This document shows, piece by piece, positions 10,775 through 62,990 of a stretch of 64,000 nt of DNA. Position 1 is the first letter of the stretch; every line of letters starts with the position of its first letter. This stretch comes from Eledone cirrhosa (lineage: Eukaryota). A program made the position numbers and the translations under genes. The stretch spans positions 190,712,001 through 190,776,000 of the forward strand of contig OZ024741.1 in assembly GCA_964016885.1 (NCBI GenBank), given 5' to 3'. Under the pieces are notes generated by a model, which was not told the origin of the DNA, ran no database searches, and worked only from the letters and a program-made list of their open reading frames with translations.

Positions 10775-11245
10775 CTAATTAGGTATTGAGATATTAGCTG
10801 TATACTTTATGGAAAGTTCTATGGGATTTATGCAAGCAGAGCGAAAATAATCCGTACGTCTATTTATTATAGAATTAAAATTAGAGATAATGGTAAATTT
10901 CTCGGCTAGGCAGAGATTACATGTTTTGGATAGGGAAGAATTCTGGTAAGGAAAGGCGTTGTAAACCTTCCTCCAAGATATGTTGTAGTTAATATTTTTG
11001 TCTTTTAAGGACCATATGAGTTCCGAGAGTGCCGTGTTAGTTCTTTTAAGTTGGTATTTAAAAGATGAATTGTGATTATAAAATCTTGCTTTAAAGGAAA
11101 TGGAAGTGGAACCAAAATAGGTAAAAGAATTAGTACCAGTTATAACCTTACATTCATACACTAAATTTTTATCAAGACATTGGTTATTAAGAGGACATTT
11201 AGTTCTAACAGGGAAAAACATGTGCGTCAAAACATGGCGTCCCAC
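10775..11245 (-). pseudogene. PLE GIY-YIG endonuclease domain (5'-truncated)
   Basis: KCPLNNQCLDKNLVYECKV...TYFGSTSISFKARFYNHNSSF...TALSELIWSLKD...CNLCLAEKFTII...INRR. Confidence 0.85.
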
Positions 11246-11967
11246 CCTCTTCCGATACTGCCAATATATAGTAATAATAATAAATGTGAAAACTAAAATC
11301 CAAAGAGGGCTTGATAAAGATAAATATATATCAAATATATAAGAACCCTAGATCAAATATTTATTAAAATAACAGATTAAAGTTTAAGCAAAGAATCGCT
11401 GCTTTCACCCTTAACAGGATCTTCTGAAACTTAAATCTCTAAGTTCATAATTCATTTAACTAATTCCTCTAAGTTCATAATTCATTTAATCTCTCCTTCA
11501 TTCACATTATATCCTTAATATTTTAATTTTAATAATACATATTAATAAATTCTTTTTTTCGCACATATTATTAAACCCTTCAATATATAAACCTTAAATA
11601 AATACTATTCTTAATTCCTTTTTATTTAATCATAAACCTCATTAACTTTTAATTTCAAAATCTTTTAAAATTATCTATTATCTATTATCTTACAACGGTT
11701 TTTTTAAATTTCTCTCTGTGAAACAGTGTTTTCTCAGTTTTAAAGGCTATCTCTCTCTCTCACTCATTTCTCCTCCTCTCTCATCCTTCCTTCTTATACT
11801 TTTCCCCTGTCATCCTTTATTTTCTTTCTTCCCCTTCCTTACCTTTTCCTGCCCCCACTCCTCTTTTTTTCCCCCAATCTCATATATCCATCTTACTTTA
11901 TTTTTCATATGTTGATTTAACACTTCACTGCTCGCAAGTGTTTTTTAAGCTTCATATCATGTCTCCC

Positions 11968-17736: not shown

Positions 17737-17778
17737 TGCAGACACTAATGTTTCTGGGTATTAGCCATCATCAGTACA
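17737..17778 (-). ncRNA. Compact type I HHR of a solo retrozyme-like element
   Basis: Minus strand: TGTA-CTGATGA-TGG(CTAATAC)CCA-GAAA-CATTAGTG-TC-TGCA; octamer 84 nt upstream. Confidence 0.7.
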
Positions 17779-17858
17779 CGTCACTGTTCACCTGCCAACT
17801 GTCAGAGCTGGTGAATATGTATGCTATTTTCTAAAATATACAGTGACTGATCAGCCTG

Positions 17859-17866
17859 ATTTGCAT
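17859..17866 (-). promoter_or_regulatory. Octamer motif ATGCAAAT upstream of the HHR
   Basis: Exact octamer followed by CAGGCTGATCAGTC, which resembles TAGGCTGCTCAGCC after the octamer at 21347. Confidence 0.5.
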
Positions 17867-17976
17867 ATTAGCAGACTGGCTGATCAGTCAGTTTCCTGTA
17901 TACGAGTGATCAATGGCCGGCTTTGCCATATTCAAATAAAATTAAAAAAACATATATATATATATATATATATATA

Positions 17977-20083
17977 AATTATACAATTATCAAAGTTATG
18001 TTCAAATCATTTTATTGCGGACAATCGTTTCTTCCAAACTTTCGTTTGGAATCATCGGAGCATTAGCAATGTTTGTACATATAATTAACCTCCTATTCAA
18101 CTGAACAATCATATAGATACATATATATTGATGTTGTGAACAACAGTTTCATATTTACAGGGTGGAATGGATGCGACATATATTATACGAGAATTGTACA
18201 ATAATTCAAATTAAAATAACACAGGTATACAAGCATATCAAGCAAAGGAGCTTGTGTATTAAAATTATGGTGGATGTAATGTGAACTGCTTCAAGATGAG
18301 ATACAACTCGCACCACCACTCATTCAAAAATCGCAATCTAGCCTACTCTACTTCTTTATCTAGCTACATACACTCTCTGAAAACTCGGAATAGACCATAT
18401 ACACTTCAATGGGAAGTAATAGATAGGGCTGCATCGTATAAACCACCGAATAAATTGTGTAACTTCTGTCTTCTAGAGACCCATAATATAATCTTTTCGA
18501 GACTTCCTAAATAGAAAATCAGAGGTGTTTTCCTCATGCCAGCACCACTACCGACACTCGTTCCATAACTTTAAACCTAGCTGCTAGTATAACAATGTCA
18601 GATTTGAATTCCTCACCACCATTAACACTTCACCTCTAGGACTTATCAGCCCCCACAGCATCACAATCTTTGATCAGCTCTTTCCTCTACACAACTCCTA
18701 TTTATCTCTAACCTTAAACTCTACAATAACTGTTAGAAATAAACATAAAGTTACCACCTTTTAATATAACTACTATAGCTTACTTATATACAGTAATGGA
18801 TATATAATATGTAGAGAAATTTAATGTAATATGTAATAATAAATTATATATACATTTATAATTAAATATATAAATTAATAGCATTATATATAAGGGATTA
18901 ACTTTTAACATAATATAATGTATATTAATAACACAAGAGATTTAACTAATTGGACCTGTAAACAGCTATACATTTTTCCATAACTTATATCTTATCCAGT
19001 AATGGATAGATAACAATGTAATGAGACCTTTAATGTATTATAGGAAAATAGACTATATTTAAAATTAAATATAAATAAATAACATTATAAGGAGGGATTC
19101 ACTTGTAACACAATATATTATATCTTAGAGCAAAGAATTTAAATAATTGATACTTTCCTATATAATTTAATTTAATTAGGTAGTTACCTCCCCTTACGCA
19201 TTAGCTCCCCTTAATTTTGGATCTCATACTCACTTCCGGAAATTAAACCGTTAGAAAAACTCGCTGTAAAAAAACTCTAATCCATGGATACAATATGACC
19301 AATTTACAATCCATTGCTATAACTAACTAAAAACATTCAATATAAACATTAACTAAAATATAATTTAACATATGTAATGGAAAAGATAACTCTCAACACA
19401 TACACATTTGAACACTACAGAAACTACCATCAAATTACATCCACCATAATTTTAATACACTAGCCTCTTTGCTTGATATGCTTGTATACCTGTGTTATTT
19501 TATGTGATACCTTTGCCATACAGTATTTATTTATGCCTAATACATTTGCTTGTTTCCTCATATATATGACTAACGCATGTGCACCCTCTACACGCTTGCA
19601 TATGTACTGCTAGTGTCCTCATTCTTCCCCAATGCCTCTTTAATTATTAGACTATTCCCTTGTATTATCTGTTGCATGTATTCCACTCTGTGCTTTTAAT
19701 TTTAATTTGAATTATTGTACAATTCTCGTATAATATATGTCGCATCCATTCCACCCTGTAAATACGAAACTGTTGTTCACAACATCAATATATATATATC
19801 TATATGATTGTTCAGTTGAATAGGAGGTTAATTATATGTACAAACATTGCTAATGCTCCGATGATTCCAAACGAAAGTTTGGAAGAAACGATTGTCATCA
19901 ATAAAATGATTTGAACATAACTTTGATAATTGTATAATTTATATTCCTGCTCTGTAAAACACCTGATGTTCTTACATTGAGCTATTTCTCTTACTGGTAA
20001 TAAGGTAGTAATAAATTACTGACCTTCCCTGTTTATAGTTGTTTATAGTATATACATAACTATAAATAGTATCATTATTATTA
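17977..20083 (+). mobile_element. PLE 3' part with GIY-YIG remnant (~18270-18580) and inverted pLTR at its 5' end (17977-18213 vs 19704-19941)
   Basis: FKMRYNSHHHSFKNRNLAYSTSLSSYIHSLK...WEVIDRAASY...CNFCLLE; inverted arms carry the HHR. Confidence 0.8.
19854..19900 (+). ncRNA. HHR with CCGATGA core (mirror copy 18016-18062 on -)
   Basis: TGCT-CCGATGA-TTCCAAAC(GAAA)GTTTGGAA-GAAA-CGATTG-TC, then AATAAA; stem I imperfect in both copies. Confidence 0.6.
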
Positions 20084-20893: not shown

Positions 20894-20998
20894 TCCTTAA
20901 TTTTCGAGATAATATCTCTTCTTCGGAGGGAAGTAAAGTTGTTAAACCAGCGTTCTAAATAGCTTGGCAAGCTATTTAGAAAGCTGGTTTAACAACTT
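20894..20998 (-). repeat. pLTR fragment with HHR-like motif (20894-20930) ending in a 63-bp fold-back palindrome (20936-20998)
   Basis: Minus strand CCT-CCGAAGA-A-GAGAT(ATT)ATCTC-GAAA-AT-TA-AGG; palindrome AAGTTGTTAAACCAGC...GCTGGTTTAACAACTT. Confidence 0.55.
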
Positions 20999-21346
20999 AC
21001 ATCGTTCCTGTGTCAGTGTTGAACAAAAAGGTGACGTGGTTGCCTTAACACCGTATGGCATAAATTCAGGCTGTTCAGTTTGTTTACAAACGAACAAAGC
21101 GACGTTAGCGCCGCTAAACTGATACGTGCATATATGTATGTGTACCTGTATGCATATGTATATATATATGTATATATATATATATATGTGCATGCTACTG
21201 TACGTCTGTATACATATATGTATGTACGTATACATGCATACTTACATTTAAGTAAGTGCCATACTAAGAGTGAGAAATGAAATTTCGTTTTCATTTTGTT
21301 TCAATTTATCGTTTTCGGTATGCCTGACCGATTTAACTCACTCAAT

Positions 21347-21394
21347 ATGCAAATTAGGCTGCTCAGCCGTTAATTTTCATAAGGAAAGTATATA
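21347..21394 (+). promoter_or_regulatory. Putative internal snRNA-type promoter: octamer ATGCAAAT (21347-21354) plus conserved block TAATTTTCATAAGGAAAGTATATA (21371-21394)
   Basis: Both blocks and their spacing are conserved in the otherwise divergent 469-bp family. Confidence 0.5.
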
Positions 21395-21427
21395 CTTTCG
21401 AACGTTCAACTATCTGGCAGATGGGTA

Positions 21428-21472
21428 AACGGTGCTGATGATAGCTAACAAGCTTGAAACTAGTACATCGTT
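21428..21472 (+). ncRNA. Minimal type I hammerhead ribozyme; predicted cleavage after 21465
   Basis: AACGGTG-CTGATGA-TAGC(TAACAA)GCTT-GAAA-CTAG-TA-CATCGTT. Confidence 0.85.
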
Positions 21473-21826
21473 CCTGTGTCAGTGTTGAACAAAAAGGTGA
21501 CGTGGTTGCCTTAACACCGTATGGCATAAATTCAGGCTGTTCAGTTTGTTTACAAACGAACAAAGCGACGTTAGCGCCGCTAAACTGATACGTGCATATA
21601 TGTATGTGTACCTGTATGCATATGTATATATATATGTATATATATATATATATGTGCATGCTACTGTACGTCTGTATACATATATGTATGTACGTATACA
21701 TGCATACTTACATTTAAGTAAGTGCCATACTAAGAGTGAGAAATGAAATTTCGTTTTCATTTTGTTTCAATTTATATATATATGTATGTATGTTTATATA
21801 TATATATATATATATGTATGTATATT

Positions 21827-42950: not shown

Positions 42951-45503
42951 TCTTGGAGTCTGAGTCATTGATGTTATTTAACTGGAAAGTTTGTTGAAAT
43001 GTACATCAAGCCGCTACCTGCAGCCTCAGATATTCAGGATGTATCGGAGGGTTCTTGCTATTCCCAGCAAGCATGCCTTTTGAAGTGTTCCAATAAAGGG
43101 GCTGGACTAATCTTCTTTAACCATCCTTGAAAACTCTTTGAGATAGTACCTAATGCTCCTTTGACAATCGAGACAACCTTGATCTCATGACAGTCCCAAA
43201 TCCTTTTTAACTCCCACTTTAAATCCTACATCTACAATCAGGCACAATCTTTTATCCTTATCAAAAACCACCAAGTCAGATGTATTGTGTTCTAATTTCT
43301 TGTCTGTCTGTATCCTGAAATCCCATAGCTACCTCACTTAATCGCTTTCTATCACCGACTCTGGCTTATACTCATACCACGCCTCAGAATGTGATAAATT
43401 ATTTAGTTTGCATAAATGCCAGTGAATCACCTTTCCTATTATATCGTGCCTCCAGCCTTTATAGTGAGTTTGGGCTTGGGTTTTACACTCAGATACAATG
43501 TGAGCCACAGTCTCCTCTCTCTCTCCACAGATCCTACACAGTGAGCTAGCCTCCTCCTTGTGAATATGGTGTTTCACCTACTTCGTTCTGAGAGCTTCCT
43601 CTTGAGAAGCCATTAGCATTCCTTCTGTAGCTTTTTTAAGGTCTCCTCTTTTTAACCAGTTCCATGTCTGTGGATCTCTAAATTCCGTTTTCTTAAAGAA
43701 GGTACTATGAAGGGATTTTTCATGAAGGTTGCTCTTCCCCCTTGTTGTTATTTCCTCCTTGGACATCCTTGGTCCATTGTCTTCTCCTTCAGTACAATTT
43801 TGAGCATTGGCTCCCTACTGTCAGTCACATATTTGTGCAGGTTGTTTTTCTCCATCTGAACACAGTCCTCTATGCTGATAAGACCTCTTCCACCTTCAGA
43901 TCTTTTTAAGTAAATTCTATCAACATCACTCCTCTTGTGGAACATGTTGTAGATAGTCATTAGCTTCCTAATCTTCCTATCCATTTCTTTTTGTTCAGCA
44001 ACATTTCATTTCAGAATTCCCGCACTGTACCTAATAATGGACACAGCTCAGGAATTTACTGCACTTATGACATTCCTACTATTTAGACGTGATTTTAATA
44101 CGCTCCTTACTCTCCTAATGTACTCAGATCTTATCAATTCCTTCATTTTTTTGTTCTTGATGTCATCTGCCTCCAGAACACCTAAATATTTGTATCCTTC
44201 TTCAGTGTCAATTTCTTTTATCATCTCACCTGTTGGTACCTGGATTCCGTTGCTTCTGCTCAATTTACCCCTCTTCATCACTTCATCACAAGGACTCCAC
44301 ACTTATTAAAAACCAAACTCCATACATATATCATTGCTGAAAATACGGACAGTGTCAACTCCTTCTCACTCTTCTCAAAGAGTTCAAGATTGTCTATGAA
44401 GAGGAGGTGGTTGATGGTAAGCTCTCCCTTTCCCAACTTGTATCCTGCTCTCACTTTTCGCAATATGACAGACAGGGGTATCAGGGCAAGGACAAACAGC
44501 AGAAGGGACAAACTATCTCCCTGGAAGATACCTCTCTTGATCTTCATGCCTCCCAAGGATTCTCCACCTGATGTTAATTCTGTTTCCCAGGACTTGATAC
44601 TTTTGCTCAACAACTGTCTGATGTTATCTGCCACCTTGAAGATCTCTAGGCTTTTGGTTATCCAAGAATGAGGTACCATGTCAAATGCCTTTTTGTAATC
44701 TATCCATCCCATGGCAAGACCAGTGTGCCTCCTCTTGCAATTCCTCATTACCATTTTATCAATAAGTAACTGGTCTTTTGTATCACGGGACTTCTTTCGG
44801 CATCCTTTCTGTTCGTCCGGTAACAAGTTGTTTGTGTGGAGGTGATGGTAGATTTCCTCAGACACAATGCTTGTTAAGAGCTTCCACATTACGGACAGAC
44901 ATGTGATAGGTCTATAGTTGGTAACATCATTACCCTTGATTCGGTCTTTCATTACCAGAACTGTGGTACCTTTTGTCAACCACTCTGGTACCTCACCTGA
45001 CATCAAGCAGTCATTGAACATGGCCGTCAGCTTCGGGTGGAGGGATGTTCAATTTTTAATCCAATACCCCTGCACACCATCTGGGACTGGTGATTTCCAG
45101 TTGGTTAGTTTTTTGGCCTGCCATTTAAGAGTTTCAACTGTGATACTCAAATCAGTTTGTTGGTGTGCTTGTTCACTAATCTCCTTTTGAACTGTCTCAA
45201 TCCACACTGCCTGACTATTATGTTCAACATTCTGCTCCCATATTCCTCTCCAGAATGGCTTAGTCGGTTCCGCTTCAGGGATCACATCGTTGCCTCTTTT
45301 TTTCCCTTCAAGCTGTTCAAACAACATCTTCTGGTTGTTGTCAAACATGCGGTTCTGTCTGTACTGACTAACTCTGTTCTCATACCGCCTAATCTTTGCA
45401 CTTTTTGCTATAATGCGTTGCTTCAGTTCCTCTATGATAATATTTAGCTTTTTCCCCCTAGTTTTGTATTTTATTTTCAATCTATCTTTAGTGTCTATGT
45501 TTT
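42951..45503 (-). mobile_element. R4/Dong-like LINE (degenerate RT, CCHC, RLE)
   Basis: NYRPITCL, EQKGC, WIDYKKAFDMVPH, GIFQGDSLS, HLLFIDN, YKYLG, CRICGEREETVAHIVSEC across broken ORFs. Confidence 0.9.
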
Positions 45504-49690: not shown

Positions 49691-51299
49691 CAGTACAAAT
49701 TTAGGAAAATTAGGAAAAATGCGGTTTTAGGTATTTTTAATAAAGTTAGGGTAATGAAAATTTAACTACTCATAGAACCTATAATGAGGCATTTAATGAT
49801 ACAATCATATTTAAAAAAAAATAACAAGGAAATAACTCATGAAGAAAAATCAATATTTTTAAAACGCAAAAGTTTACAAAACATTTTATATTTATCGCTT
49901 TTTTTCAAGAAAATTCTTAAATTTTCAGATTTAAAATTCTGTAGAATGTTCTAGATTAGGTTTAAGGTAACTTCTAAGGACTATTAAAAACATTACGTCA
50001 TTATTTGTCTGACAACCATCCTGTAAACATTGACAACCGTCCTGTAAACATTGACAATATGGGGAAAAATAAACTGATTGATCAAGATCTCTGTAAACGC
50101 ATTGTAGACCTTCATACAAATTGTGTTGGTTATAGAAAGATATCTTGGCAGTTAAATGTGCCATTGAGTTCAGTTGGTACTATAATTTGTCACTGGAAAT
50201 CTCATCATTTCATCTGTCCTCTAATTAGTTCTGGTCGTCCTAGAAAGATAACGAAATGTGCAGCTCGGTTATTGACGAGAAAGGTTGGCAACGAACCCCG
50301 GTGTACTCTTAAAAATCTTCAGGATGACCTAGAAGGAAGTGGAGTAAAAGTGAGCACAGATACAATTAGTCGTTCACTTCATCGATATAATATCTTCTCG
50401 AGGTCTCTAAGGAAAACACCACTTCTTACGAGGAAACACATTCTTCGTCGATTAAACTTTGTAAATGAGCATCTCATCAAACCTGCGTCATTTTGGGAAG
50501 ATGTACTTTGGTCGGACGAAACAAAAATTAAACTTTTTGGTCGAAATGCTGTGGCAAAAGTCTGGAGAAAGAAAGGTACTGAATATTCACCGAAGAATAC
50601 TATTCCAACTGTAAAATTTGGAGGTGGATCAATCATGGTCTGGGGTTGCTTTAGTGCCACAGGTGTAGGAAATATTGAAATAATAGAAGGAAGAATGGGT
50701 GGCGTTTATTATAGAGGTATTTTGCAAAGGAATTTACATCAAAGTGCACATTCTCTCAGCTTAAAGCCAGGCTGGTTTTTTCAACAAGATAACGATCCAA
50801 AGCATACTGCAAAGCTAACACAATCTTGATTAAGTATGAATGGAATAAATGTTCTAAAATGGCCAAGTCAGTTTCCAGATCTTAACCTGATCGAAAATTT
50901 GTGGAGAGAACTGAAACTCAGAATTCAAAAAAAGGAAATCCCAAAATATCCCTGAACTAAAGAAAATTTGTTGTGAAGAATGGATAAATATTAGCCAAGA
51001 AACATGCAAGAAGTTTGTAGGAGGCTACTCTGTACACCTACAGGCTGTAATTAGCAGCAAAGGTTACGCTACGAAATATTAAGAGATGATTTAATAAATG
51101 TGTTGTAAACTTTTGCGTTATAAAAATATTGATTTTTCTTCATGAGTTATTTCCTTGTTATTTAAAAAAATATATGATTGTATCATTAGATGCCTCATTA
51201 TATGTTCTATCAGTAGTTAAATTTTCATTACCCTAACTTTATTAAAAATACCTAAAACCGCATTTTTTTTAATGTGTTGTAAACTTTTGTGGGGCACTG
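49691..51299 (+). mobile_element. Tc1-family DNA transposon with long IR/DR-type terminal repeats and TA target duplication
   Basis: TA|CAGT...ACTG|TA ends; ~165-bp inverted repeat (~49716-49881 vs ~51103-51267); direct repeat AATGTGTTGTAAACTTTTG twice in the right TIR; left tip degenerate. Confidence 0.9.
50059..51082 (+). pseudogene. Tc1 transposase with premature TGA (50827-50829) and a frameshift near 50935
   Basis: [54 protein letters not shown]. Confidence 0.9.
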
Positions 51300-51451: not shown

Positions 51452-51501
<50 letters not shown>

Positions 51502-51792
51502 TCAAAACAAATAACGAAACGAAATTAAATTTCGTTTCGCTTCTAACTCACTTTTGTATGACTGACGCTTAAACAATTAAGTTAAAGTGTACATCTACAT
51601 ATGTATACGGAAGTATTAGTATGCATATAAATACACACATGTATACATATGTACATGTACTCAGCTTTTCACTAGACACTTTACAGTGAGTGTCAGCTAG
51701 TCTGTATGTAACCACACAGGCGGACCGGGTTTTAGAGTCATACGAGTTTTCAAGGAAACACATTTCCTCTATTCTCCAGAGGGCCAGACAGG

Positions 51793-51837
51793 AATATTGG
51801 ACTAGTTTCGATGTTATTACATCTCATCAGCAATATT
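51793..51837 (-). ncRNA. Minimal type I hammerhead ribozyme, copy 1
   Basis: Minus strand: AATATTG-CTGATGA-GATG(TAATAA)CATC-GAAA-CTAG-TC-CAATATT; canonical core, 7-bp stem I, GUC triplet. Confidence 0.9.
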
Positions 51838-51883
51838 TACCCATCTTCCGGCTTCTCTGGAGAATTGTAAAAGCACATATCGT

Positions 51884-51943
51884 TATATGCTTTTTCTATG
51901 AAAATTAGTAGTGGGTAGACTAACTTGCATAGAACGTGAGTCA
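51884..51943 (-). promoter_or_regulatory. Putative promoter module: TGACTCA, ATGCAAGT (51923-51930), TAATTTTCATAGAAAAAGCATATA (51884-51907); repeated at +469
   Basis: Homologous in order and spacing to 21335-21394. Confidence 0.5.
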
Positions 51944-52261
51944 TTGTACGCACCGGTTCAGCGGAAACGATAAAAACAAATAACGAAACGAAATTAAATT
52001 TCGTTTCGCTTCTAACTCACTTTTGTATGACTGACGCTTAAACAATTAAGTTAAAGTGTACATCTACATATGTATACGGAAGTATTAGTATGCATATAAA
52101 TACACACATGTATACATATGTACATGTACTCAGCTTTTCACTAGACACTTTACAGTGAGTGTCAGCTAGTCTGTATGTAACCACACAGGCGGACCGGGTT
52201 TTAGAGTCATACGAGTTTTCAAGGAAACACATTTCCTCTATTCTCCAGAGGGCCAGACAGG

Positions 52262-52306
52262 AATATTGGACTAGTTTCGATGTTATTACATCTCATCAGC
52301 AATATT
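52262..52306 (-). ncRNA. Minimal type I hammerhead ribozyme, copy 2
   Basis: Identical to 51793-51837. Confidence 0.9.
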
Positions 52307-52659
52307 TACCCATCTTCCGGCTTCTCTGGAGAATTGTAAAAGCACATATCGTTATATGCTTTTTCTATGAAAATTAGTAGTGGGTAGACTAACTTGCATA
52401 GAACGTGAGTCATTGTACGCACCGGTTCAGCGGAAACGATAAAAACAAATAACGAAACGAAATTAAATTTCGTTTCGCTTCTAACTCACTTTTGTATGAC
52501 TGACGCTTAAACAATTAAGTTAAAGTGTACATCTACATATGTATACGGAAGTATTAGTATGCATATAAATACACACATGTATACATATGTACATGTACTC
52601 AGCTTTTCACTAGACACTTTACAGTGAGTGTCAGCTAGTCTGTATGTAACCATATATAT

Positions 52660-54513: not shown

Positions 54514-55732
54514 TATATATATATATATGTATATGTATATGTGTGTGTGTGTAAGTATTTGCATTAAACATGCATGTGCATGTGAATAGCTGTCTATCCA
54601 CACATATAGCTTCATATGGATAATAGTTAAAACAAGTGGTGACATTTGTTTGTCTTACAGCTATGTTGTTGTTTAATGAAGATGAGCAGTATATGCCAAC
54701 ACATTAATTTTAACTTTAAAAAAATAAAGTATAAGTTGCTATCAGGAAGGGTACCCAGTCATAGAATACTGCATTGAAAAATTTCTTCCAACACATGTTG
54801 GCATGAAAAAGCAGACATAAAAACAATCATTAAGTATAGTTTGTACACTGTTGATTTCCCTTCGTACCTAGAGCCAGTAGGGTTCATTACAACCTTCCCA
54901 TTCCAAAATAGCAATATTCTCATCTGAGGAGCAACATGTAATGACATTTTTGTTTTTATCAGCAACTGGTGCATTCAGTGACAGACTCAGGTTTTGTTGC
55001 TGACAAGCTGATGATTGCCACTTTCTGATAGAAACTGTAATGGTGAAGACTTGGCATTGTTGGTCCTTGTGTCACCTCTCTACTCCCTGCTATTGGAGCA
55101 GAGTTTGCCACCCATAGGAGTAAGTTGGAGTGGCTATTTCAATGTATTTCCTTCACTATGCTCTGGGGTAATGCTTTCTCCATTCTGTTTACTGGTACTA
55201 TGTGGTAGCTTAGCCCTGGGCTCCCGTACATCAGAGAACATTCTTCCACACTGCTTGGGCTTATATCATTGAGGTAGCAATGGTATAGGTTGCCTATATC
55301 TATGACATTCGTCAACACATAAACACAGGCTTAATAAGGACAATTAGATAATACAAACTATAGAGAAATTTAAATAAAGTATTTATCATTTTTTAAGTTA
55401 AAATAAACCAAAATTTAAAACAATGAATAAGTTCCTTATTCACTGCAAAAAGTGATCACAATACTTGTATGAAACCCAACACTGACGCTAAAGTAGAATT
55501 ACTTTTAAGCAACTCCTCTCAACCCAATTCTTATAAATTTCTCTGTTTTGACCACCCACCACTTAAATTTCTATTCAAGCAGTGTTTACTAGGATCTACA
55601 GTGGTTGTTGTTGTGAGATCAAATTTGATAAACTGACATTACTGAAGTGGAAGCATATGAGATAACTATTTCATTGTCACACATCTAATTTTAGCTTCCT
55701 TATTTTCTCTTTGATTACCCAAATTGTACTTT

Positions 55733-56800: not shown

Positions 56801-57106
56801 TATTGGGGGTTTTTACTGGAACATTCCACCAGTACTCTTTCATATGTATGTATACATGCTTGCTTTCTATAACCTCCTCATTTTTCATCTCTCTTTTTCC
56901 CTCTCTCTCCCACTCTCTATTCGATTTGTGGTTATATCTTAAACCCCCAACTTTTTTCTATACAAATAGTATGCAGCTGTTTAAGGCTACCTTCCGCGCT
57001 GAGAATACTCAAATTTTACGAATATTCATTTACATTCATCGCTTCAAACCTTTCCAATTAATGTTTTATATATATATTTCGGGATTGTTTTTTTTATAAT
57101 TATTAT

Positions 57107-58915
57107 AAGGTGCTAGCAAAGGGGTTGGCACTTGTCGTCGGTGGTCTGGTGGGAGAGGCGCAGACATGCGCCATTCCAGACACATCCATCCATGACAACC
57201 TCCACCTCATGCGATACGTCGTAGAGAGGGTAGCTGGCATGGGTGGGTCTTTGATCAATTTAGATCAGTCGAAAGCTTTCAATAGGGTCGACCATCATTA
57301 TCTGGCAGCAGTCCTGAGGGCGACTGGCTTTGGGCCTGTCTTCAGAGGTTGGATTGCTGCCATGCACAGCAACATCTGCTCTGTGATGGGAGTGAATGGT
57401 CATCCTTTGAAACCGTTCAACATCATGCGCTCAGTCCGCCAAGGATGTCCCCTCTCGTCCCTCTTGTACGTATTGACTCTCAAGCCATTACTGCACAAAC
57501 TTGAGACATTGAGGGGGGTCCCATGCGAACTGGGATGTGGAAGAACCGTGTCAGCATATGCCAACGACGTCGCCGTAGTGGTGTCGAATGCCAAACACAT
57601 TGAGGCAATCAGCAGTACACTAAGAGAATAGGAGGCGGTGACAGGAGCAATGATCAACCAGGAAAAGTCGGTGGGCCTGTAACTCGGCACCTGGAGAGGC
57701 AGGTCCATGCTGCCCAACAGCGTCGTCAGGCGCTGGACGGACGGACTGGTTAAATTGCTAGGGGTCTGGTTTGGTCCAGGACCTCCAGATGGACAAAAAC
57801 TGGGACGAGGTGATGAGCAGGATGGCCTCTCTCACCCATAAATGGGCTGAGAGGAAGCTATCCCTGAAAAGTTGAGTGGAGGTGGCGAATGGGTACATCG
57901 CGTCCGTCATATACTACTGCCTGACCATCATGCCTTATACTAAGCCTCGCCTGATTACAGTGCAGTGTTTGCTCTTTCGCTTTTTGTGGAAGGAACGTGC
58001 ACCGATGGTCAGGCGGTCCATCTGCTGTCAACACCCTCTACGTGGAGGGCTGAGCATGCTGTGGCTGATGATGCGCAGATATGCGCTCAGGCTATGGCAT
58101 CTCCACCTCTTCCTCGACGGTGATCAGGTGTGGTCGACGTTTGCTAGACGCATCTTTCCCCAGCTCATCTTCTTGATGGAGCTGCAGTCCTGGGTCAAGC
58201 GAAGACCGAGAGGGAGCACTTGGAGACTGGAATGTCTTCCGGATCTTATAGCCCTCGACCAGCTGAGCAATGCGATCGGTGGAAACTCCATCTTGGCATT
58301 CTATAGAGGGTTTGTGGAGGGAAAGAGCGACGACGTCCTTGGGGAGACTCTTGGCATCGAGGAAAATCAACTAGCCAATCTCTTCAGGAGAACTTTTGGG
58401 CCAGGGCCCATGGACAACTTACAGAAATCCCTGGCCTGGCAATGCTACCAAGGAGCCTTGACAGTTTAGGATAAATTCTACAGGCATGGAAGCGCCGTTA
58501 GCTGGGCCTGTCCGAGATGCATGCAGGGAGATGAAACCGGCCTGCATGCACTCGTCCAGTGTCCGAGCATTGCTGACTTGCGGGTTTATGTCAAACACCT
58601 GCTGTCGTGTGTAGGACGGATCCGGCTATCAGCTGAGTCCACCGTGAGGATTGCCCCGCCGCTTCCTTTAGCCGAGAAGAGCAGGCAATTTTTATTTGCC
58701 TGATGATCATGGTAAAAGAGATTGTATGGTGGACACGTCTGAAAGGGTTGAAGACAGGTACTTTCCTCTTCGGCAATTTCCTCATTAACTTTTTCAGGTT
58801 TCACCTGAAAAGGAAAATCAGGGTGGAGAGGGAAGTGTTGCCTTCCAGCCAGTTTGTTGAAAGGTGGGTGAGAGAGGCAAGAATGGCCCGTGTGAATGAG
58901 CCTACCCTGAGCTTT
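57107..58915 (+). mobile_element. Tx1/L1-clade LINE RT to C-terminus (degenerate)
   Basis: QTCAIP..SIHDN, LDQSKAFNRVDH, SVRQGCPLS, AYAND, LLFRFLWK, C..C...ET..HALVQC. Confidence 0.85.
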
Positions 58916-61861: not shown

Positions 61862-62990
61862 ATTTCTGAATTTGTTTTGCAAGATTTCTTATCTGAAAAT
61901 GTGCGTTGAAACAGATATTGTTATACTTTGGGAGGGTCATGCTGCCAATAAAAACACACTTCAATTTATTATAAATTTCCAGTTGGTTGGTTGGTTCGAT
62001 AACTGGAAGGATGTTTATATATTGTCAAAGCTCTTTTGTCACACATTCTGTGACCTCCTCAGTGACTAGGTTTTATTTTGTGTCTCTCTCCTTTGTTCTG
62101 TCCTACACCATCTTGTTTTTATGTGTTGTGTGCTTAGTTTGCGCATGTGTTAAATCCGTGTATGTATGTGTTTTTATTTATTTATTTATGTGTTTACTTA
62201 CTTGTCACTAGTTGGTTGTTTGTTCTATCTGTGTGTGTCTGGTTTGTTTTGTTAGCTTGGTTTTTGTGTATGTCTTCATTTTGTCTTTAATTACTAGTTG
62301 TGATGTTGCTATTCCACTTATGTTTTCTGTTTAATTTTGGTTGGAGTTTGTTTATATTTGTTGCCTCAGTGATTTGTCTGAGCATTGCATCTTTTCTGGG
62401 TGTGGATATAATGTTTATCTCTATGTTTTCTAATATGCCGCTATGTTCTATTTTGGCATGTTGGTGGAGTACTGATGAGTTTTTCTCAACCTGGAGTTCT
62501 CGCCAGTGTTCACTTATCCTTTCTCCTATGCTACAGGCTGTTTTACCTATGTATGTTGTGTTCTTATTCCTACACTGTCCCTCAGTACATCTTATGTTAT
62601 ATATTACATTCCTAGTTTTGTAGTTAGTTTGTGGGCTCAGCTTGCAGACTATGTATTTCCTATCAGCACAGGGGGATCTTTGAAATGGGTATGTTTTGCT
62701 AATTAGAGTTTTTATGGGAATACCGGGTCTTTCAACTATCTTAATATTTAATTTGAGCTTCTCTAGGGCCCTTCTAAATCTATAAGCTAGTTCGCCACTA
62801 GGGGTTGTATTGACGAACATTACACTCTGGTATTTATTGCTATCATATCATGAGTTTATTTGCCTTATTCCTAATCCTTTCTATTTTATTCCAAAATTTG
62901 CTCCTATACATAGGGTAAGTAATAAATTGAAGTAAAAACCAACTGGTGCATGTGTTTTTATTGGCAGCATAACCCTCCCAAAGTATAACA
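61862..62990 (-). mobile_element. PLE of a second subtype: GIY-YIG ORF end, pLTR, and short inverted pLTR tail at ~62920-62990
   Basis: 62920-62990 is a reverse-complement match to ~61918-61975; HHR at 62024-62066. Confidence 0.8.
62287..62820 (-). pseudogene. PLE linker plus GIY-YIG endonuclease (5'-truncated)
   Basis: FVNTTP...IKIVERPG...NVIYNIRC...C...YIGKT..SIGERISEH...HQH...H...RQITEA..I....PKLNRK. Confidence 0.85.

Follow-up and report, generated by a model that had tools for sequence, protein, structure and literature searches.

The hammerhead repeats that occur as two arrays in the 64-kb window (the whole stretch of Eledone DNA analysed) appear, from their sequence, to be a very common self-cutting element of this genome with host U6-type upstream signals within each unit. 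We regard it as fairly probable that a 12-mer and a TATA-like box in these repeats constitute a built-in U6-type RNA polymerase III (Pol III) promoter, carried by retrozymes that move in the manner of Penelope elements. Of the four motifs to which the sequence-only reading of this DNA had drawn attention, only these two look like promoter parts. The features concerned are listed in Table 1.

Table 1. Coordinates of the hammerhead arrays in the window and of the elements within their units
Feature	Position	Strand	Remarks
Array A	21000..21775	+	1.67 units of a 466-nt hammerhead repeat; starts at the cleavage site
Array A, 3' side			ends at the fixed long 3' end of the family, unit position 310; then (TA)n
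Array B	51501..52652	-	about 2.45 units of a homologous 469-nt repeat
Array B, 3' side			stops at the fixed 3' end, unit position 299, before (TA)n
GAGTGAG, 5' helix arm	21268..21274	+	pairs with CTCACTC
T-rich tract, three T4 runs	21288..21315	+	immediately upstream of the module; may act as a leaky Pol III terminator
ACTCAC(TC), 3' arm of long-range RNA helix	21336..21343	+	A-U to G-C change in 2/14 rows
12-mer TATGCAAATTAG	21346..21357	+	same sequence as the -78 element in a host U6 gene; putative proximal promoter element
12-mer TATGCAAGTTAG, array B	52389..52400	-	second copy at 51920-51931; other B copies have the A form
TAATTTTCATA	21371..21381	+	inverted, imperfect copy of the 12-mer, with which it pairs in a hairpin; variable
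TATA-like box	21389..21394	+	lies 43 nt past the 12-mer start; part of a small RNA hairpin
AGATGGGTAAACGGTG	21419..21434	+	forms the 5' strand of the extended stem I; contains the predicted start
Type I hammerhead, 2-bp palindromic stem III	21435..21472	+	predicted cut after A21465; stems I and II covary
Third hammerhead family (K)	17740..17867	-	12-mer with one mismatch, 93 nt before the core at 17774; TATA poor

The arrays and their retrozyme family

In array A, which has a single ribozyme and a single module, the motifs follow one another on the forward strand in the order ACTCAC (21336), ATGCAAAT (21347), TAATTTTCATA (21371), AAAGTATATA (21385-21394), AGATGGGTAAA (21419) and the ribozyme core CTGATGA (21435). 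The order is the same in array B on the reverse strand, with the 12-mer at 52400 and 51931 and the cores at 52299 and 51830. All the motifs named in the sequence-only reading were thus found, in order, in both arrays, and its spacing of 15-16 nt holds if counted from the end of the octamer. The monomers are not, as it had put it, "mostly unalignable by eye": those of A and B can be aligned end to end, with 265 of 490 columns identical, so the shared motifs alone could reflect descent and are not by themselves evidence of function. They are not shared by chance, since within the window the words TAATTTTCATA and AGATGGGTAAA are confined to the two arrays, and since the pattern 12-mer..TATA..CTGAHGA has 19,258 matches in the genome against none for the reversed pattern.

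A pattern describing the A/B ribozyme matched the 3.0-Gb genome 9,791 times and its reversed control did not match at all; for a generic hammerhead pattern the corresponding numbers were 105,932 and 8,235, some matches being counted twice. An Rfam scan of the window at the gathering threshold returned no matches. The copies are tandems, often with an inverted 5' arm; their 5' ends scatter, and their 3' ends lie at two fixed positions with (TA)n behind them. Among 28 rows of family A, 14 end at unit positions 305-310, ten at 247-255 and one at 236, three ends at 466 being artefacts; among 19 rows of family B, nine end at 299 and seven at 225-230, and three are artefacts. (TA)n follows the fixed ends in most rows of both families. 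The long 3' end falls within the T-tract in A, A', B and B', that is, the insertions end, in their last unit, in the same T-rich tract that lies upstream of the module. The survey of 5' starts sampled only copies that keep the ribozyme, and overlapping loci may have been counted twice in it; four family B starts at position 1 are likely to be spurious and due to variant ribozymes.

The layout found is therefore both that of elements mobilised by Penelope (incomplete tandems with inverted 5' arms, a tail restricted to one end, a microsatellite target) and that of non-LTR retrozymes (non-coding units in tandem, each bearing one type I hammerhead and lacking an open reading frame). Judged by sequence and layout, the A and B repeats are non-LTR retrozymes as these are defined in PMC7229834 and bioRxiv 10.64898/2026.07.22.740005. 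Array A, with its one ribozyme, would fail the two-ribozyme rule of Li et al. (bioRxiv 10.64898/2026.07.22.740005), which array B and many relatives pass. Unit lengths differ within one array (456-502 nt in L075-L079 and 454-468 nt in L138), and such differences fit microsatellite slippage or mixed templates, not one identical circle. Reverse-transcriptase-like fragments near some copies, considered as a partner element, have no fixed layout and no Pfam match.

Several other elements were observed in the window. A 62-nt near-perfect palindrome (20938-20999), seen neither elsewhere in the window nor in the fetched loci, abuts the 5' end of array A; the coincidence of that end with the ribozyme cut site is a single case, which chance could give. 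A decayed hammerhead near 19858 (19850-19900, +) resembles family H by eye, and another match resembling a hammerhead core lies at 55008 (+). A Tc1/mariner transposase fragment and two reverse-transcriptase fragments are located at 49978-50826 (+), 44281-45048 (-) and 57062-57628 (+), and the frames 10778-11347 and 62290-62847 are endonuclease-like by eye, with no Pfam match.

Host small-RNA promoters and the module in the repeats

The host set comprised U1, U2, U5, U6, U6atac and RNase MRP genes from the genome, with one promoter per distinct lineage chosen by eye: 12 for U1/U2/U5 and five for U6/U6atac/MRP. Three U6 flanks (L037, L044, L045) and seven of the eight U6atac matches were left out of the model as apparent retrocopies or interrupted copies; the U6 retrocopy-like matches and these seven lack the proximal element. 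The U1, U2, U5 and U6 genes occur in large tandem arrays (host promoter map L001-L070, L111, L139, L270-L285). The genes for U6 (three lineages), U6atac and MRP, which are Pol III genes, share TATG(C/G)(A/T)AAT(T/G)AG at -77 to -79, a TATA box at -30 and T-run ends, while those for U1, U2 and U5 share AATTAAAT near -90, CAGT at -54 to -57 and a TATA-like box near -30; a TATA box is therefore not diagnostic of the polymerase in this animal. A profile of the host 12-mer scored 13.5-17.7 bits in a leave-one-out comparison in all five U6/U6atac/MRP promoters and at best 1.4-10.0 bits, anywhere and on either strand, in all 12 U1/U2/U5 promoters, which supports the match to the Pol III class.

In 12 of the 18 promoters, drawn from both classes, another word, TTAC(C/T)TCCCTTG, is found between -257 and -288; it is absent from the U5 promoters. 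The sequence-only reading had taken the octamer for the distal element of snRNA promoters. Since the octamer-like word lies at -77 to -79 and is confined to U6, U6atac and MRP (and U13), and since a different word lies near -260, the octamer-like word is proximal here and the distal element is another one. Searching for further host genes with the distal word and the 12-mer combined yielded 47 matches and added, among the 20 loci scanned with Rfam, only the U13 snoRNA gene (L257:1328-1436, -), which has the distal word, the 12-mer at -76 and a T4 run shortly past its end. From these elements U13 may be transcribed by Pol III in this animal. As a by-product, the U6-type and U1-type promoter elements of the animal have been defined, which is useful for guide-RNA expression.

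In the repeat units, TATGCAAAT(T/G)AG matches the -77 to -79 element of all five host U6/U6atac/MRP promoters and the -76 element of U13. The distance from the 12-mer to the TATA box is 42-44 nt in families A, B and C, 46-48 nt in D and 41 nt in E, compared with 47-49 nt in the five host promoters; A, B and C are thus about 5 nt short, which weakens the reading as a Pol III promoter, as does the finding that U13 has the 12-mer with the same spacing of 43 nt. In a model combining 12-mer and TATA box the units of the window scored 26.6 (A) and 21.4 bits (B), values reached by none of 100 shuffles each, against 24.3-28.5 bits in host promoters. The model was passed by ten of 22 family representatives, and the U1/U2/U5 model by none of the 22. 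For A' the combined model was applied to a 5'-truncated copy (12.5 bits, 7/100 shuffles); the full A' unit scored 18.6 bits on the 12-mer (0/300 shuffles). A U1/U2/U5-type reading of A and B was rejected, as the respective scores are 4.6 bits (9/100 shuffles) and -5.4 bits against 11.4-28.7 bits in the host genes.

The representatives differ in origin: A and B were taken from the window, and A'' and B' were retrieved with the ribozyme alone, whereas those of C, D, E and K were found with 12-mer patterns, so that their match is partly circular. Family C recurs in the ribozyme-only sample and K recurs in the window at 17867. Within the ribozyme-only sample the 12-mer lies within 150 nt in 10 of 48 rows, the rest being truncated copies, chance matches or other families. 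Across 13 representatives and 78 columns the 12-mer is almost the sole strongly conserved stretch, and mismatch rates in the 12-mer and its surroundings were 0.000 vs 0.059, 0.024 vs 0.105 and 0.018 vs 0.153, differences that come from small samples and are partly inflated by ungapped comparison. Contigs from a deep public run support the promoter reading as well: TAATTTTCATA reads TAATATGCATA in about 54% of the depth (variants at 21375 and 21377) and common variants occur at 21422 and 21428 in AGATGG, but there are none at 21346-21357 (12-mer) or 21389-21394 (TATA box).

The earlier proposal that each monomer carries its own promoter is therefore retained in part. A host snRNA-class signature does lie upstream of the ribozyme, with a 12-mer that persists through divergent families in which the adjoining sequence varies; the parts assigned to a PSE and a distal octamer are not retained. 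Some observations weaken the reading as a Pol III promoter. The host distal word near -260 is absent from A and B, and none of 29 family A 5' starts falls between positions 405 and 466, so no clustering at the predicted start was seen in this sample. T4 runs are absent from the 295-334 nt body of A, A' and B and one (T5) is present in that of B', but a body free of T4 is not significant (P 0.19-0.30 per family). Family G has arrays without the 12-mer, and the TATA box of K is poor.

Family G is a tandem hammerhead repeat of 310/311 nt with long young arrays that lack the 12-mer (L228, L192-L199; G000:C1:5.39 Mb, 1.24 Mb), evidence that the 12-mer is not essential to all families. It carries the exact host distal word right after the ribozyme, at -257 from the predicted start of the next unit (20.3 bits, 0/300 shuffles), which provides separate support for the borrowing of host snRNA promoter parts; the word doubles as one strand of stem I and so is also under constraint from RNA pairing. 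Weaker copies of the distal word are found in family C at about -260 and -278 (5 and 8 of 300 shuffles), the first distance being summed from two loci. A U1-type site in G and a relative scores best at the expected place, but its score is matched by 23 and 20 of 100 shuffles, so the U1-type layout of family G is only a hint. It is also worth noting family M (L244, L245), decayed and hammerhead-like, with a word resembling the distal one and the 12-mer in one unit, which was found by a pattern requiring both.

According to the mechanism proposed here, the module would recruit the host U6-type machinery, and Pol III would start about 30 nt past the TATA box, near 21419-21424 (21419 by TATA+30 and 21424 by 12-mer+78, both inside AGATGGG), just before stem I. 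Most RNAs would stop at the T-tract ahead of the next promoter, where insertions also end. A minority would read through, and their ribozyme-to-ribozyme monomers, circles or uncut multimers would contain the promoter. A Penelope-type reverse transcriptase would copy such promoter-bearing RNAs into (TA)n sites, and the upstream promoter would thereby be carried through retroposition, whereas a plain U6 retrocopy loses it. Human termination rates of 75, 95 and 99% at T4, T5 and T6, as given in PMC6023835, lead one to expect read-through below about 1%, which counts against this mechanism. More broadly, and only tentatively, we suggest that a radiation of circular-RNA retroelements has internalised host snRNA promoter parts. 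An external U6-type Pol III promoter would survive retroposition, leaky termination would set both the insertion end and the supply of promoter circles, and sister families would use subsets of the parts (12-mer and TATA box in A-E, distal word and TATA box in G), all of them folded as RNA hairpins.

RNA helix arms and competing explanations

The remaining motifs, ACTCAC, TAATTTTCATA and AGATGGG, are explained as arms of predicted RNA helices. ACTCAC pairs with an upstream GTGAG, and both sides change together in A'' (2/14 rows). With this compensatory change, and with TGACTCA present only in family B, the suggestion of an AP-1 site was abandoned. AGATGGGTAAA is the 5' strand of the extended stem I. 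The TAATTTTCATA block had been read as a PSE; compared with the 18 host promoters it has 2-5 mismatches of 11 in every one, at scattered positions with no positional match, and it is variable and the pairing partner of the 12-mer, all of which speaks against that assignment. The shuffle control of the helix test can be passed by related sequences without structure, so the contrast between helices is informative and the totals are not. Among 14 A/B rows none of the 11 pairs of the helix between the 12-mer and TAATTTTCATA shows two-sided changes, the changes lying on the 3' arm except for one A-to-G, as against 3/6 pairs in stem I and 3/5 in stem II, a contrast that supports the promoter reading. 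The pairing partner of the 12-mer is downstream in A, B and C and upstream in D, while the 12-mer itself is nearly fixed across the 13 representatives.

Three other explanations have to be weighed against a Pol III promoter. It is rather unlikely that the 12-mer and the TATA box form a real built-in promoter which recruits Pol II, either as a POU-factor site plus TATA or in dual use, the T-runs being passed and multimeric RNA made in the way reported for newt satellite 2. Recruitment of Pol II would be in line with a spacing shorter than that of the U6 genes and equal to that of U13, and with the read-through of three to four T-runs that promoter-containing arrays need; human type-3 promoters are described as recruiting Pol II as well (PMC6023835), and the TATA-like box of the host U1, U2 and U5 genes means that the TATA box does not tell the polymerase. 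Yet the units misfit the host U1/U2/U5 model (9/100 shuffles at best among the 22 representatives), the 12-mer marks the Pol III gene class, and in A, A', B and B' the long 3' end lies in the T-tract.

Explanations that dispense with a promoter are, even taken together, quite improbable. One of them, for which we see little likelihood, is that the module is kept for RNA reasons, as a hairpin stabilising the circle or bound by a protein or the reverse transcriptase, with transcription by read-through from outside promoters, as a review proposes for retrozymes (PMC7761336). The module region does surpass shuffles in folding (z -3.3 for A, -8.5 for B), pairing of the 12-mer amounts to about 80-90% in families A, A', B, B' and C, and a role in RNA does account for ACTCAC, TAATTTTCATA and AGATGGG; it is at odds with a 12-mer arm that lacks covariation and switches its partner between families, and with the fixed position of the same word upstream of host genes, in sequence that is not part of their transcripts. 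That the repeats have these words in common merely as neutral relics, inherited from an element which at some point acquired an upstream region of U6 type, is very improbable: the end-to-end alignment of A and B and the success of family G without the 12-mer would fit, but neither the almost exclusive conservation of the 12-mer across the 13 representatives nor its lower mismatch among copies, with the reservations on sampling and ungapped comparison given above, is what neutral descent predicts. The U6-type Pol III promoter remains the preferred explanation.

Relation to known retrozymes and hammerhead repeats

The question addressed is how animal retrozymes come to be transcribed so strongly, given that a 2020 review describes them as seemingly promoterless (PMC7761336). 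For one genome a precise and testable answer can be offered, with named elements, a predicted start, a predicted end and a contrast within the same genome (families F and G). A full-text literature search, whose coverage leaves out most subscription papers and supplements, found no paper whose title or abstract describes a retrozyme with a U6-type promoter.

With the metazoan non-LTR retrozymes as described by Cervera and de la Pena 2020 (PMC7229834), in PMC7761336 and in bioRxiv 10.64898/2026.07.22.740005, the Eledone repeats share a tandem arrangement of non-coding units that each hold one type I hammerhead, a low GC content, strong predicted folding, copy numbers in the thousands and a link to Penelope-like elements. 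The difference lies in the promoter, as the units in Eledone each have a host U6-type module while the retrozymes of the review seem to harbour none (PMC7761336). With Penelope-like elements' pseudo-LTRs (PMC4209133; bioRxiv 10.1101/2021.04.23.441226) they share partial tandems, inverted arms at the 5' side, microsatellite targets, a hammerhead with a short palindromic stem III and a tail on one end only, the latter being a described Penelope-like layout (bioRxiv 10.1101/2021.04.23.441226); they differ in having no open reading frame in the A and B units and a tail of about 60-70 nt, as opposed to 30-40 nt. Family F of the same genome (L140-L169), in which the hammerhead lies towards the 3' end of an extended T-rich stretch and which has inverted arms and both long and short ends, is probably the pseudo-LTR of an autonomous Penelope-like element. 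Unlike the A and B repeats, this pseudo-LTR-like family, to which the best 30 Rfam hammerhead matches belong, has the 12-mer in none of the 30.

Internal promoters have already been reported in hammerhead repeats of the newt and the schistosome, and the U6-type version proposed here would, if true, be the third promoter type for such repeats. The promoter of the schistosome repeat is of the tRNA type with internal boxes, unlike the Eledone module, which resembles an upstream type-3 promoter. Both would nevertheless place a Pol III promoter, a candidate one in Eledone, inside the repeat, and in both it lands at the 3' end of the cut monomer, so that tandem copies are needed (for the schistosome hammerhead SINE/satellite, Ferbeyre et al. 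1998, as described in PMC6765202 and PMC2220036). Newt satellite 2 is likewise a hammerhead tandem repeat with an internal snRNA-type promoter, and is reported to be transcribed by Pol II (Coats et al. 1994 and Cremisi et al. 1992, as cited in PMC2220036 and PMC6765202). The parallel with this satellite, drawn in the sequence-only reading, holds in its logic but not in the polymerase class, as the Eledone module matches the Pol III gene class of U6, U6atac and MRP and its octamer-like word is proximal.
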